64,000 nucleotides of DNA from Promethearchaeati archaeon (GTDB lineage Archaea; Asgardarchaeota; Heimdallarchaeia; Heimdallarchaeales; Heimdallarchaeaceae). Shown piece by piece: positions 49,959 to 54,201 of the stretch (within the stretch, counting starts at the first letter, position 1; the number at the start of each line of letters is the position of its first letter). A program made the translations under genes and the position numbers. Location of the stretch: contig JABLTJ010000002.1 in assembly GCA_013166775.1 (NCBI GenBank), forward strand, positions 128,001-192,000, written 5' to 3'. The notes below the pieces were generated by a model. That model was not told the origin of the DNA and did no database searches. It was given only the letters and a program-made list of their open reading frames with translations.

Positions 49959-50336
49959 TCATCCTTCCTCTATACTTTTCATCATTCCAATAAAAGCTTT
50001 GTAAAGGCACTCTGCGCAGCTTGTTGCTTCTGGATCAATGAATAGAATTACGTCTCTCATATTTTCATAGATTTTTCTTGGAATTGCTCTATCGCCTATA
50101 ATTATTCTGCGTTGTTTTGTAGGGCATGTAATACAATCCTCTTGATCATTAGTAACAGCATTCAAACAGTAGGAGGGATTGTTAAATTCTTCTAAATTAA
50201 TATGTTCTAAATCCATTGGATCAAAAAAACTAATGACAATAACCTCATCGAATTCATCATCTAAGATACAATAAGTTGCACCTTCAAGTTCTTTATGCAT
50301 GGGGCATGGTTGTCTAATCCACAAAAGTTTGGACAT
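49959..50336 (-). CDS. Hypothetical Cys-rich protein
   Basis: CPMH, YC, YC, CITCP, CAEC. Confidence 0.65.
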   Translation of the reverse strand: MSKLLWIRQPCPMHKELEGATYCILDDEFDEVIVISFFDPMDLEHINLEEFNNPSYCLNAVTNDQEDCITCPTKQRRIIIGDRAIPRKIYENMRDVILFIDPEATSCAECLYKAFIGMMKSIEEG

Positions 50337-50430: not shown

Positions 50431-53400
50431 TTAAGCTCTGATAGGTGCTCTGCTTCTATAATCATAGTAAATTTTAGTAATTTCACTAACCATTTTCTCA
50501 TTGAAAGTTGTCATCATTACTGGATCTCCACTTGGAGCTTTGTGTCCTAGGAAACCTTCTTCAATTCCATCTCTGGTACCCATCATTACAGTTAACTGAG
50601 GATCATCCTTTACAGTAACATTTCCCATTGTAATCATTTTTGTTAGCAAAGCTTTGTCTTTTTCGTTGTGCTGTGATGTATTTGTTACAATCTCAAGTTT
50701 TCTACTGAAAGTATCCATGAATTCAGAATCTATCCATCGTAATGTTGGAGAAACTATAGTAGCTGAAGATTTTGTATGTCTTAGCAATGCCATCATTGTT
50801 GCTCTTACTTGCTCGTTTCCTGTCACTAACCACATATCTTCTACAGGATTGGGTTCAATTCCCTTTCCTAGTGATAGAACATCCCTTAGTATTTTCATTG
50901 AATCTCCTGTTGCTTCTAGAACAACGTCAATTTTACCAGGAATAGTGTTTAATAGTCCAGTAATATTAGTATCAACTGCTTCTACTTCTTGCAGAGAGCT
51001 TTTAATCAAATCTTCCTTGAAGCTCATCAGTTTAGAGTTATATTCAGTTTTCTGCGAATCTGCTATTTGTGAATCTTGAACTACCTTATCTAATTTCTCT
51101 ATAAATGAGTTAAGTAATGATCCAAAGAGGTCTGAAACAGTTTTTTCCAGATTAGTGAGATCAGATTTTATTGTTTCATTACCTGAAGTAATAGTATCAG
51201 TAAGAGTATCTCTAGTCCCTTGAACATTTGTTACTAATGCTGAGGAGTTTGAATCAGAATTTGTTATAAAACTACTTATCTGATGTTGGACATTTAGATC
51301 ATAATCCTTGCTGTCCTTGTCAAACTCTTCTTTAATAGAAGTAACATTACTCTCAAAATCAGTTGACATCTTATCGTATGATTTTTCTAAATCCTTGTGA
51401 ACTCCTTCATACATTACATCGATTTCTGCTTGTACTAATGATTTGAATTCATTAGTTGAGGTGTCTAATTTACTTGAGAAAGAGTCTGTATCCTTCTTTA
51501 TTAGCTTTGGATACTCTATAGTTAGTTTCTGCATTTCCTCCTTAGTGAGTATAACTACCTCATCTAGTTCTGAAGATTTCTCAGGAGATACATTTAATTC
51601 AGCGAGTAATTCTTCAGTACCTTCTAAGAACTGTTGAATTTCCTGATCGATTAATTCGTTTATTTCGCTTTCAACTTTTGCAGTTTGGGTAGTATAATTA
51701 GCAACTGCTTCATCTAAAGTAACAGAAACATCAGTATCTAAAGCGTTCTTAGCAGTTTCAAACTCTGATTGCATTGTTTTCATATTTGTATCCATAGAAG
51801 AGTTAACTTTAGTAACTAATTTTGTATGATCATCAATATTTGTCTTGAGTGTCTCTTGAAGAGTATTCATAACTTCTTCATTGTTTCCTTTCATCAAAGT
51901 AAAGATTTCTTCTTTCTTTGTTTGTAATGCAGTGAGTCCTTCTTCTAAATGGAGCTGCATCTTTGTTTTATCCCCTTCTTCTGCAGATACTGAGGATTTT
52001 ACAATGTCGTCTAGAGAGGTCTTAATTTTCTTTATTACTCCACTGAATGCTTTAGATTCAGCACCGACCACTTCCCTCAATCCACTTGTGCTGGTATCCT
52101 GGAGTTCAATATATTGTTCCTCGTAAGTTACATATGTTTCTTCTATTGTTTTCTTCATCTCATCTAATGATTTTGATAATTGATCGCTTATCTCGGTTCT
52201 AGATTTCTCAAGAGACTGACTAGATGATTGAATTGTATTGTTTGTAAATTGCGAAAGCTCATCTAGCCTTGCATTAACTCTTTGAAAAACTCCAGTGGAT
52301 AAAGTTGTCATAGAATCTGAAAATGTTTGAATCATATCCTCAGCTTTTGAACCAACACTATCCTTGAGAAGTTCAATATCTCTATTCATGCTTCCAATAA
52401 GTTGAGCCATTCTTGGCCCATCTTCCTTACCAAAAACTCTCTGAAGTTGCTTTTGATCTAATCCTTGGAAGGAGCTGTTAATTTCTTCAATTTTCGCTAC
52501 CGCTGATTTAAACTGATCACTAATTTCATTCAATCTATCTAAACTCGTTTTGTAATATATTTGTACTAAATCTGGTACTTCATCTCGTATGTCTCTACCT
52601 CTTTTCGAAAAATCATCTGAAAATGCTTGAATATCATTATTGAATTGTGTTTCTTTTTCTTGAATTAGATCCTTAATTGCACTATCATTGTCCTTCACAT
52701 TTTTCTCAATATTAGAAACAACTTTCTCTTTTAGCTCATTTAGGTGAGAAGTAAACACTTGTTTGAACTCATCATGAGTTGAAGTAAAAATTTTAACCCG
52801 TTCATCCAGAGATGTTTGATAATCCGTTGCAGTTTTTGACAAATCATCTAAATAAGAATTAGTTGATTCTTCAAAAGTTGTCATTATTTCATCAATAAAA
52901 GTAGTCACTTGATCACTCACTTTTTCAATTGAAGATGACAAATTTTCTTTGAAAAGGCTGAAACCATCTTCTATTCCTTTCTTGAGAAGTGATAAAAGAC
53001 CATCGCTGTTCTTTTTGAAATCTTTGAGATAAGATGATAAATCAGAGCTAAGTTTGCTTTTCATTTCTTCGGTTTTACCTTCTGTTTGAGTGATTAATGC
53101 ACCTAATTTTTCTACAGAATCAGTCTTGGTTTTATTAAGAAGATCTACGAATTGGTTTTCGTTTTCTTTTAGAATGTTTACAGCTGTTTCTTTTGATTTA
53201 TCTATTGATGATTTGATTCTGTTAGTAGTTGCTTCTTCAAGTTTCTTAAGTTCTTCATTCAATGAAGCTAGAATCAATTTTGTTTTTTCTTGATGTTTAT
53301 CTAATTTGGTTTCATAATTTGCAATTATTTTGTTTAGTGTGCCTGTTAGTTTTTTAGTTGAATCTTGAGTGGATGTCTTTGAATCAGATTTGATTTTGTT

Positions 53401-54201
53401 TACTACATCGCTAGTTACTTCATCTATAACTTTTTTCTTCCCTTTTGCAGTTTCAAGAAATGTTTGAAGCTGCAAGGATAGACTCTCCTTTATTCCTTCC
53501 ACTTTCTCCAATATTGCATCAAGTTGAACATTTATTCTTACGTTGTGTTCTTGTTGAAGAGAACCGAATGTTTCTTCAACCTTAAGCTTGAAAGCTTCAT
53601 GATGTTCTCCTATTTTGTGTATTGTGGAATCGAAGGAATTCAAAACGTTCTCTCTAACTCTTTGAGCAGATTTAGCTATATTCTCACTGTTTGTAGAAGA
53701 TATTGTTGAAGTTTCGGAATTAACTCTTTCAATAATCTCTGTTAGTTCACTCTTTCCTGTGTCTACATGTGATGATATAATTTCTAGAAATTGTTTTGAT
53801 ATCCCACTTACTTCTTGAGAATGAGCGTCTACATCTTGAGTGATTTTCTCATGAAAACTAGTTAATTGTGTTCTAAAATTCTGCATTGTTTTATTCCAAT
53901 CAACTTTAACATCATCACTCAGAGTTTTCAATTCATTTTCTAAACGTTGAGAAACGTCTTCTGTTAATTTAATTTGAGGAGGTAATGGAATATAATAAGA
54001 AGTTCCTTCTGCATTTTTTGCTTTTACCTCTTTAACATATCCGCGACCAACCAATTTTTCCAATGCTGAATTTATTTCATCAGCAGAGATCTTAACGTAG
54101 GTCTGGATTTGTCCAACAGTACGGAAACCATACTGCACAATGTTTGAATAAACTTGGATTTCATCTTTCGATAATCCTATTTTTTCTAATGTTCCTTGCA
54201 T
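50431..54201 (-). CDS. TrmB-like wHTH + ~1000-aa helical/coiled-coil rod + TrmB/PLD-like C-terminal domain
   Basis: N-terminus LEKIGLSKDEIQVY...ALEKLVGRGYV...YIPLPP; C-terminus MWLVTGNEQV...TKSSATIVSP...LEIVT...GTRDGIEEGFLG. Confidence 0.8.
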   Translation of the reverse strand: MQGTLEKIGLSKDEIQVYSNIVQYGFRTVGQIQTYVKISADEINSALEKLVGRGYVKEVKAKNAEGTSYYIPLPPQIKLTEDVSQRLENELKTLSDDVKVDWNKTMQNFRTQLTSFHEKITQDVDAHSQEVSGISKQFLEIISSHVDTGKSELTEIIERVNSETSTISSTNSENIAKSAQRVRENVLNSFDSTIHKIGEHHEAFKLKVEETFGSLQQEHNVRINVQLDAILEKVEGIKESLSLQLQTFLETAKGKKKVIDEVTSDVVNKIKSDSKTSTQDSTKKLTGTLNKIIANYETKLDKHQEKTKLILASLNEELKKLEEATTNRIKSSIDKSKETAVNILKENENQFVDLLNKTKTDSVEKLGALITQTEGKTEEMKSKLSSDLSSYLKDFKKNSDGLLSLLKKGIEDGFSLFKENLSSSIEKVSDQVTTFIDEIMTTFEESTNSYLDDLSKTATDYQTSLDERVKIFTSTHDEFKQVFTSHLNELKEKVVSNIEKNVKDNDSAIKDLIQEKETQFNNDIQAFSDDFSKRGRDIRDEVPDLVQIYYKTSLDRLNEISDQFKSAVAKIEEINSSFQGLDQKQLQRVFGKEDGPRMAQLIGSMNRDIELLKDSVGSKAEDMIQTFSDSMTTLSTGVFQRVNARLDELSQFTNNTIQSSSQSLEKSRTEISDQLSKSLDEMKKTIEETYVTYEEQYIELQDTSTSGLREVVGAESKAFSGVIKKIKTSLDDIVKSSVSAEEGDKTKMQLHLEEGLTALQTKKEEIFTLMKGNNEEVMNTLQETLKTNIDDHTKLVTKVNSSMDTNMKTMQSEFETAKNALDTDVSVTLDEAVANYTTQTAKVESEINELIDQEIQQFLEGTEELLAELNVSPEKSSELDEVVILTKEEMQKLTIEYPKLIKKDTDSFSSKLDTSTNEFKSLVQAEIDVMYEGVHKDLEKSYDKMSTDFESNVTSIKEEFDKDSKDYDLNVQHQISSFITNSDSNSSALVTNVQGTRDTLTDTITSGNETIKSDLTNLEKTVSDLFGSLLNSFIEKLDKVVQDSQIADSQKTEYNSKLMSFKEDLIKSSLQEVEAVDTNITGLLNTIPGKIDVVLEATGDSMKILRDVLSLGKGIEPNPVEDMWLVTGNEQVRATMMALLRHTKSSATIVSPTLRWIDSEFMDTFSRKLEIVTNTSQHNEKDKALLTKMITMGNVTVKDDPQLTVMMGTRDGIEEGFLGHKAPSGDPVMMTTFNEKMVSEITKIYYDYRSRAPIRA

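Follow-up and report, generated by a model that had tools for sequence, protein, structure and literature searches.

Background

The closest described relatives of the protein considered here are TrmB (PDB 3qph and 2f5t) and TrmBL2 (5bpd, 5bqt, 5box and 5bpi), the latter a chromatin protein of the Thermococcales, which combine a wHTH (winged helix-turn-helix) domain, a helix and a phospholipase D (PLD)-like domain lacking the HKD motif. DNA recognition by TrmB involves Tyr50 and Asp51 of the recognition helix (PMC4158304). In a 64,000-nucleotide window from a Heimdallarchaeaceae archaeon (contig JABLTJ010000002.1; this is the whole stretch of DNA that was analyzed, and coordinates refer to it unless another locus is named) we identified a gene whose product, P0001, shares these parts and, like TrmBL2, has no sugar-binding subdomain. 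Whereas TrmBL2 is a protein of 264 aa with a pairing helix of about 30 residues, the two head halves of P0001 are separated by about 1010 residues of helix with an 11-residue (hendecad) repeat. The two halves of this rod pair antiparallel in a register of i+j≈1183, a conclusion that is supported by several observations set out below, and we consider it fairly probable that P0001 as a whole is a TrmBL2-type head on a fold-back hendecad rod paired in this register, with a conserved tip at its distal end.

By its two head domains P0001 is a TrmB/TrmBL2 derivative, albeit one that fails the short-linker and recognition-tyrosine features of that group: it has Asn and Ser in place of Tyr50 and Asp51, is strongly acidic, and belongs to a gene set that includes an ATPase and a second rod (P0003 and P0002, the products of its upstream neighbors). 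In its geometry it recalls the arms of SMC, Rad50 and MukB, where a long antiparallel coiled coil likewise unites the parts of a head and arm lengths covary, and the hinge-proximal part of its model finds its best structural matches among such arms (5nnv, 5xg2 and 7ogt). Unlike proteins of the SMC superfamily (SMC, Rad50, MukB, arcadin-4 and ASRP), whose ABC-type ATPase head is divided between the two termini, P0001 has no P-loop or ABC match in Pfam or NCBIfam, and a wHTH and a PLD-like fold form its two ends; its apex is an 18-residue loop-helix-loop without cysteine, in contrast to the globular hinge domain or CxxC zinc hook of that superfamily; and its arms are built on hendecads rather than heptads, one of them being wholly uninterrupted, while the ATPase is a separate AAA_16/STAND-type protein. 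The SMC-like architecture put forward in the original prediction for this gene is therefore apt for the geometry but not for the hendecad rod, the short apex loop or the missing ABC head. The same prediction had suggested a relation to arcadin-4, taken to be an HTH-coiled-coil protein; arcadin-4 is instead a Rad50-related SMC-superfamily ATPase of crenactin clusters (PMC9389158), P0001 has no ATPase head, and we rejected this relation. No crenactin gene adjoins the gene set.

Other long or antiparallel rods share single aspects of this design. Sso10a of the Sulfolobales also sets a winged helix on an antiparallel coiled coil and offers a precedent for DNA bridging (PMC4941522), but its mass is about 10 kDa, its rod extends for a few nm and pairs between molecules, and it has no PLD-like domain. 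The cytoplasmic hairpins of chemoreceptors (2ch7, 3g67 and 1qu7) are antiparallel, have a conserved partner-binding tip and superpose over their whole length on the model of the P0001 rod, yet they are heptad-based, about 20-25 nm long, membrane-anchored, obligate four-helix dimers of unrelated sequence and domain composition. The ZorA tail, a right-handed coiled coil of about 70 nm (PMC11946911), and tetrabrachion are long rods with 11-residue periodicity, and profiles of the former match the P0001 rod; both are parallel homo-oligomers (a pentamer and a tetramer) on a membrane motor or the cell surface, in contrast to the antiparallel, TrmB-headed P0001. A literature search for such proteins found no paper on a TrmB-headed rod family.

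Results and Discussion

A TrmBL2-type head divided by a hendecad rod

When searched alone, the N-terminus of P0001 matches the Pfam TrmB wHTH at aa 5-75 (E 2e-12; 47 bits versus a cut-off of 25.6) and aligns to residues 10-103 of TrmB 3qph, as anticipated for the first 75 or so residues. The last 177 residues have neither a Pfam match nor a PDB sequence match. For this region we used an AlphaFold2 (AF2) model, built from an alignment of 35 family members, whose core has a predicted confidence (pLDDT) above 90. Its best Foldseek match in the PDB is TrmBL2 5bpd (E 1.7e-9), followed by phospholipase D 7e0m, then TrmB 3qph and 2f5t (~2e-6) and Nuc-type PLD nucleases. Since the model matches TrmBL2, PLD and TrmB, the TrmB/PLD-like label given to the domain in the original prediction is valid at the fold level, and on the strength of this model its nearest relative is the chromatin protein TrmBL2. 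The C-domain has no HKD catalytic motif, an H-x-K sequence occurs in only some family members, and the family alignment of the domain holds no conserved stretch of 7-10 columns.

Between these domains the family-alignment hydrophobicity shows one sharp period of 3.66 residues (11/3), with a power about 100 times the median in each half, which bears out the long helical stretch expected here. Windowed phase tracking places the N-arm (aa 78-583) in a single register for about 46 repeats, with the phase remaining at 60-120 degrees throughout. The C-arm keeps one phase over aa 595-860, is broken at aa 860-900 (with conserved P873 and P898) and has another phase over aa 900-1045. Homologues that are only about 15-20% identical repeat this arrangement, with an N-arm unbroken for more than 600 residues, a break at the residue aligned to K592, and a C-arm with 2-3 register shifts. 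The hendecad core consists of positions a, d/e and h, with apolar residues at 70-87% of positions a and h and at 38-55% of d/e. The apolar stripe comprises about a quarter of the residues; so narrow a stripe suits helix-helix packing and not a lipid-binding face.

The amplitude of the hendecad signal collapses only over aa 573-605 (0.07 versus about 1.2 elsewhere), that is, around QGLDQKQLQRVFGKEDGP at aa 579-596, where a Gly/Pro break had been noted. Conserved Gly and Pro are nearly absent from the rod except near this midpoint, which holds G580, G591, G595, P596 and G603, and AF2 breaks the helix at aa 579-582 and 591-593. From one side of the midpoint to the other the hendecad phase shifts by about 80-170 degrees, an amount that varies between lineages. 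The Gly/Pro cluster, the loss of the hendecad over about 30 residues and this lineage-variable jump together argue against one continuous helix through the center. The hinge was placed by windowed phase tracks and a hinge hidden Markov model (HMM), a single best phase split being confounded by the register shifts of the C-arm and by chance phase matches. The conserved hinge motif K..FGK..GP (aa 584-596) lies at the rod midpoint and is not fortuitous. Across 25 close homologues there is no variation at D540, P543, V546 and K592 and hardly any at F590 and G591; K592 is at least 90% conserved in 34 full-length homologues, the distant ones of which are only about 13-19% identical to P0001. Within the rod only the motifs RDxVP and K..FGK are kept family-wide.

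Outside the hinge the most conserved blocks of the rod are aa 181-210 (nt 53572-53661), which contains ..IGEHHEAFKLKVEE with a conserved His, and aa 961-1000 (nt 51202-51321), which contains the Ser/Asn-rich SFITNSDSNSSALVTNVQGT. In the i+j≈1183 register these two blocks lie opposite each other, about 17 nm from the head, and may form a site for binding a partner or a metal.

Evidence that the two arms pair antiparallel

The lengths of the two arms were measured in 39 proteins between HMM anchors, namely the end of the wHTH, the hinge and the start of the C-domain. They fall into 25 classes, from 468/468 to 802/777 residues for the N-arm and C-arm, with a correlation of r=0.991, and the hinge stays at 0.496-0.516 of rods that span 936-1579 aa. 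Paired changes of arm length are seen within single lineages (468 to 571 to 802, 588 to 661, and 514 to 620), and a sister clade of proteins of about 1471 aa has insertions of 106 aa after aa 440 and of 104 aa after aa 718. The conservation profile of the rod, compared with its own mirror image, reaches its maximal correlation (r=0.635) at S=i+j=1180-1185, above any other mirror or shift. As the hinge HMM detected no hinge in the paralogue types outside the gene cassette (L010, L020-L029 and P0058), this mirror symmetry is established for the cassette orthologues only.

Column covariation points to the same register. Mutual information with average product correction was averaged along antidiagonals for 1000 values of S in 49 sequences; a profile word search intended to enlarge this set added only unrelated hendecad proteins, and the set was kept at 49. 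The signal peaks at S=1183-1186 with z of 4.1-4.4 (5.1 when smoothed), the top eleven antidiagonals all fall within S=1172-1194, and the peak repeats in four non-overlapping quarters of the N-arm at S=1184, 1183, 1185 and 1182. The original prediction had proposed a register of about 1185, and to this covariation, arm lengths, insertions and an AF2 hairpin all conform.

The AF2 model of the rod, covering aa 322-860 and built from 42 sequences (pLDDT 76), has helices at aa 323-435, 441-578, 583-590, 594-738 and 745-859. Its residues 439-741 superpose on whole two-stranded antiparallel hairpins in aligned ranges that are all centered on aa 588-591, with the hairpin turn at aa 589-591. These hairpins include B. 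subtilis Smc 5nnv (252/252 aligned, Z 11.9) and P. yayanosii Smc 5xg2 (237/237), as well as chemoreceptor hairpins, p85 iSH2 and HP0958. Furthermore, aa 80-200 of the N-arm covary with aa 984-1104, again at i+j≈1183; the pairing thus extends to the head, so that the wHTH, whose last residue is aa 76, and the PLD-like domain, which begins at about aa 1115, must lie together at one end of the rod. With pairing that reaches up to the head, the earlier estimate of an arm of about 75 nm stands.

Based on these observations we propose that P0001 is a TrmBL2-type protein, in which a wHTH is combined with a PLD-like domain that lacks the sugar-binding subdomain. The short pairing helix found after the wHTH of TrmB proteins would have grown here to about 1010 residues of hendecad (11/3) helix. 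The first half of this helix (aa 78-583) would pair antiparallel with the second (aa 595-1110) in the constant register i+j≈1183, uniting the wHTH and the PLD-like domain at one end and leaving the Lys/Gly/Pro motif of aa 584-596 about 75 nm away. Of these elements the data demonstrate the folds of the domains, the regularity of the hendecad, the break at the midpoint and the mirror-symmetric covariation of lengths and columns. The molecule would be a stiff, strongly acidic, two-ended spacer or tether, with its head on DNA and its conserved tip on another partner, and the rod might be assembled or remodeled jointly with the hinge-less helix P0002 and the AAA_16/TPR ATPase P0003.

Weighing the alternatives

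Several points weigh against this proposal. The insertions of the sister clade (clade B) are about 20 residues off exact mirror positions, the covariation comes from a small sample (49 sequences, effective number 37), and part of it may be regional co-evolution, since it is equally strong at non-core and core positions. The AF2 hairpin is deduced from superpositions rather than contacts, and their Z values of 10-13 are in a range common for long helices. In DNA recognition the head departs from TrmB, Tyr50 and Asp51 of which align to Asn44 and Ser45 in a recognition helix that is acidic; while the domains of the head have close to no net charge, the arms carry about -29 and -37 and the whole protein about -65. 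The length of P0002 does not scale with arm length. A complex prediction of aa 1-321 with aa 861-1256 gave a score of 0.27 (mark 0.32), which counts neither for nor against the pairing. Finally, covariation and a monomer AF2 model fit pairing within one chain and between two chains alike.

In view of the precedents of TrmB helix alpha5 and Sso10a, the natural rival to a hairpin is an elongated antiparallel dimer. In an extended or domain-swapped homodimer the N-arm of each chain would pair with the C-arm of the other, forming a rod of about 150 nm with a composite head at each end, its wHTH from one chain and its PLD-like domain from the other, and the same mirror-symmetric covariation of lengths and columns would be expected of it; a monomer AF2 run cannot tell its inter-chain contacts from intra-chain ones. 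The dimer helix alpha5 of TrmB is itself antiparallel (Phe81/Ile91' and Phe84/Leu88') in a dimer described as domain-swapped (PMC4158304), and in Sso10a a wHTH dimer carries its DNA-binding domains at opposite ends of an antiparallel coiled-coil rod (PMC4941522). The midpoint speaks for a turn instead, with its Gly/Pro cluster, a hendecad lost for about 30 residues and an AF2 model that caps the turn by a short helix between two loops, while the phase jump of about 80-170 degrees rules out a continuous helix but would be compatible with a swapped dimer whose center is flexible. We regard the swapped dimer as rather unlikely, and the same holds for the role that it would have as a long DNA-DNA bridge, a scaled-up version of Sso10a or of the TrmB alpha5 dimer; intramolecular pairing, that is, a hairpin, is likely. 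Of the fold-back in the original prediction, the antiparallel pairing and the meeting of the head halves at one end thus hold, and the single-chain hairpin is favored only to that degree.

A different question is what the head binds. The same rod could carry a head that serves as a protein- or ligand-binding module and could form, together with P0002, an ATPase-controlled cytoskeletal or scaffold fiber, a possibility that we take seriously while thinking it less than probable. The loss of the recognition-helix Tyr/Asp and the charge distribution described above fit such a scaffold, as do the composition of the cassette, in which two of the three proteins are pure hendecad helices, and sub-threshold SNAP/TPR matches in the C-terminal regions of four of six orthologous ATPases, SNAP being a known adaptor of helical bundles. 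On the other side stand a wHTH score well over the TrmB cut-off of Pfam, the closest structural kinship of the C-domain with a chromatin protein, and the family-wide retention of basic residues at R27, R53, K57, K60 and K62 in the wing and its flanks. Judging from these residues, the chances that the head still binds DNA through its conserved basic wing are about even.

The similarity of the rod to other proteins with an 11-residue periodicity invites two further readings. PADLOC ZorA profiles match it with E down to 6e-18 and NCBIfam ZorA_3 with E 6.5e-10, which, together with AAA_16 and weak nSTAND1 matches on the ATPase, would suit an anti-phage defense module with a STAND-like ATPase as sensor and long ZorA-tail-like helices as effectors. 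These matches are, however, confined to the tail region of the profiles and never include the MotA-like membrane part, no effector domain is present, and the rod gene is single-copy and vertically conserved, with stable length and neighbors across an order, and occurs in every genome of the two nearest families (28/28 and 11/11), unlike the patchy distribution of defense islands; such a role is very unlikely. The other reading, an amphipathic helix that binds lipid or membrane surfaces in the manner of apolipoproteins, perilipins or phasins, or else a string of compact bundles with its ends far apart, we consider least likely of all. It can draw on a match to Pfam Apolipoprotein A1/A4/E at 91 bits versus a cut-off of 90 and on weak ApoLp-III and Phasin matches, but the hydrophobic stripe is narrow and not punctuated by Pro, and an N-arm without loop or register break over 500 residues excludes serial compact bundles. 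Neither model explains the covariation of arm lengths and antidiagonals. The original prediction had named serial bundles and a non-conserved midpoint as points that would tell against a fold-back; the N-arm is unbroken and K592 is conserved. We attribute the ZorA and apolipoprotein matches to the shared 11-residue periodicity.

Two family assignments suggested by these matches were likewise rejected. P0001 is not a ZorA protein of a Zorya system, as it has no MotA/ExbB-like membrane domain, its matches lie in the tail only and its N-terminus is a wHTH. Nor is it an apolipoprotein (PF01442), in view of the marginal score, a nearly Pro-free rod and the narrow apolar stripe. Apolipoproteins A1/A4/E are secreted lipid carriers whose class-A amphipathic helices, 22-mers punctuated by Pro, present a broad apolar face. 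A set of bacterial proteins (P0147-P0172; 1438-1472 aa, one of them named from Melainabacteria) has only 'Apolipoprotein'-type matches and is unrelated to P0001; these are apparently another family of giant 11-residue-repeat helices.

Gene cassette and distribution

The rod gene closes a compact set of three genes read in the same direction (Table 1), in DNA with a G+C content of about 32%; the P0003 gene abuts the P0002 gene, and a gap of 9 nt separates the end of the latter from the rod gene.

Table 1. Position of the rod gene, its parts and its cassette neighbors in the 64,000-nt window
Feature	Position (nt)	Strand	Description
Rod gene, P0001	50431..54201	-	1256 aa; TrmB-headed hendecad rod protein
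N-terminal TrmB-type wHTH, aa 5-75	53977..54189	-	Pfam PF01978, E 2e-12; alignment to TrmB 3qph
N-arm, aa 78-578	52468..53970	-	Single uninterrupted hendecad helix of ~46 repeats with constant phase
Hinge-proximal conserved block RGRDIRDEVPDLVQIYY, aa 535-551	52549..52599	-	D540, P543 and V546 invariant in close homologues
Hinge/apex QGLDQKQLQRVFGKEDGP, aa 579-596	52414..52467	-	Loop, 8-residue helix, loop; chain reversal in the AF2 model
C-arm, aa 597-1086	50944..52413	-	Hendecad helix containing register shifts; covaries with the N-arm
C-arm discontinuity, aa 871-898	51508..51591	-	Phase jump and amplitude dip; conserved P873 and P898
C-terminal head half, aa 1087-1256	50434..50943	-	Entry helix 1087-1113, then PLD-like domain of TrmBL2 type; no HKD motif
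P0002, upstream partner gene, 487 aa	54211..55674	-	Pro-free single hendecad helix, no hinge
P0003, first cassette gene, 595 aa	55675..57462	-	AAA_16/STAND-type P-loop ATPase; TPR/SNAP-like C-terminal region

This order, namely an AAA_16 ATPase (570-612 aa), a helix protein (482-778 aa) and the rod protein, was found at all 11 of the hinge-bearing orthologue loci that were read. P0002 maintains one hendecad phase over aa 34-450 (about 420 aa), and middle proteins elsewhere have a single phase over about 700 aa and again no hinge (L002 5687-7999; L003 5690-7999). As a single helix, the middle protein would measure about 63 nm in this genome and about 105 nm in other Asgard lineages. It has 482-487 aa where the arms have 514 or 620 aa, and about 770 aa where the arms range from 468 to 802 aa.

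The ATPase P0003 has the Walker A sequence GAEGTGKS and retains the Walker B Asp, in the form hhhhD-N in this clade versus D-D/E in most others. A comparison of P0003 with the PDB gave no sequence match. The sub-threshold SNAP (PF14938) and TPR matches in the C-terminal regions of the scanned orthologues, which are not seen in that of P0003 itself, recall a STAND switch or an NSF/SNAP-type adaptor for helical bundles.

Downstream of the rod gene, at a distance of 94 nt, lies a gene for a 125-aa Cys-rich protein (49959-50336, minus strand) with several CxxC-like pairs and no Pfam match. An open reading frame of 121 aa occupies the equivalent position in the sister clade (L001 12889-13254), and none is found there in distant cassettes. 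In one distant Asgard genome (L002 1589-3708) two genes for Arf/Ras-family small GTPases lie directly upstream of the cassette. One Asgard lineage (L023, 51049-61439) has a two-gene form, in which a 635-aa ATPase homologue is followed directly by a TrmB-headed rod of 1130 aa with no gene for a middle helix.

Named homologues of P0001 come from metagenome-assembled genomes of Heimdallarchaeota/Heimdallarchaeaceae, and more distant ones from Promethearchaeota and Thorarchaeota. Of 300 genomes sampled from the Asgard phylum, 286 have matches to a profile of the C-domain, as do 69 of 70 genera, at 1-7 per genome; the matches listed are, besides contig-end fragments, mostly in frames of 460-2092 aa. 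Judged by these sequence profiles, TrmB-headed rods occur in nearly all sampled Asgard genomes, often in several copies per genome. The ATPase is more restricted. A single-protein search for it in five distant genomes found nothing, and a profile search was used instead, which detected it in 78 of the 300 genomes and 27 of the 70 genera, including every genome of the order to which the window belongs. For the two largest families the counts were 0/67 and 1/76. Where the ATPase is present, its distance from the best C-domain match is within 8 kb in at least 45 genomes.

The genome that contains the window has two shorter paralogues outside the cassette, of 750 aa (L008 8318-10570, plus strand) and 769 aa (L009 8521-10830, plus strand), with the same wHTH, hendecad rod and C-domain, beside genes for an RFC-like AAA+ protein and endonuclease III. 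A hinge could not be placed in them with confidence.

Conclusions

With 46-56 repeats in an unshifted register, rods of the P0001 type would be among the longest known hendecad coiled coils and among the most regular. In addition, they would represent a second, independent route to an SMC-like geometry, in which a fold-back arm carries a head, reached from the scaffold of a transcription factor or chromatin protein. That the three genes constitute an undescribed ATP-regulated rod system, found among the sampled genomes in Asgard archaea only, by which DNA is kept at a set distance from, or tied to, another structure of the cell such as membrane or cytoskeleton, is a speculation to which we attach a low probability. 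If it were true, a rigid acidic tether measuring 75 nm (as much as about 120 nm in relatives), which has a TrmBL2 head that binds chromatin at one end and a conserved Lys-rich tip at the other, would work with a second, single-helix rod of 60-105 nm and a STAND/SNAP-like ATPase, and would be a prokaryotic counterpart to the long coiled-coil tethers or nucleoskeletal linkers of eukaryotes. Among prokaryotes, the Asgard archaea are the nearest relatives of eukaryotes, and a conserved tether of 75-120 nm with a chromatin-type head and a dedicated ATPase would make this family a concrete candidate for the long-range organization of the nucleoid in Asgard cells.

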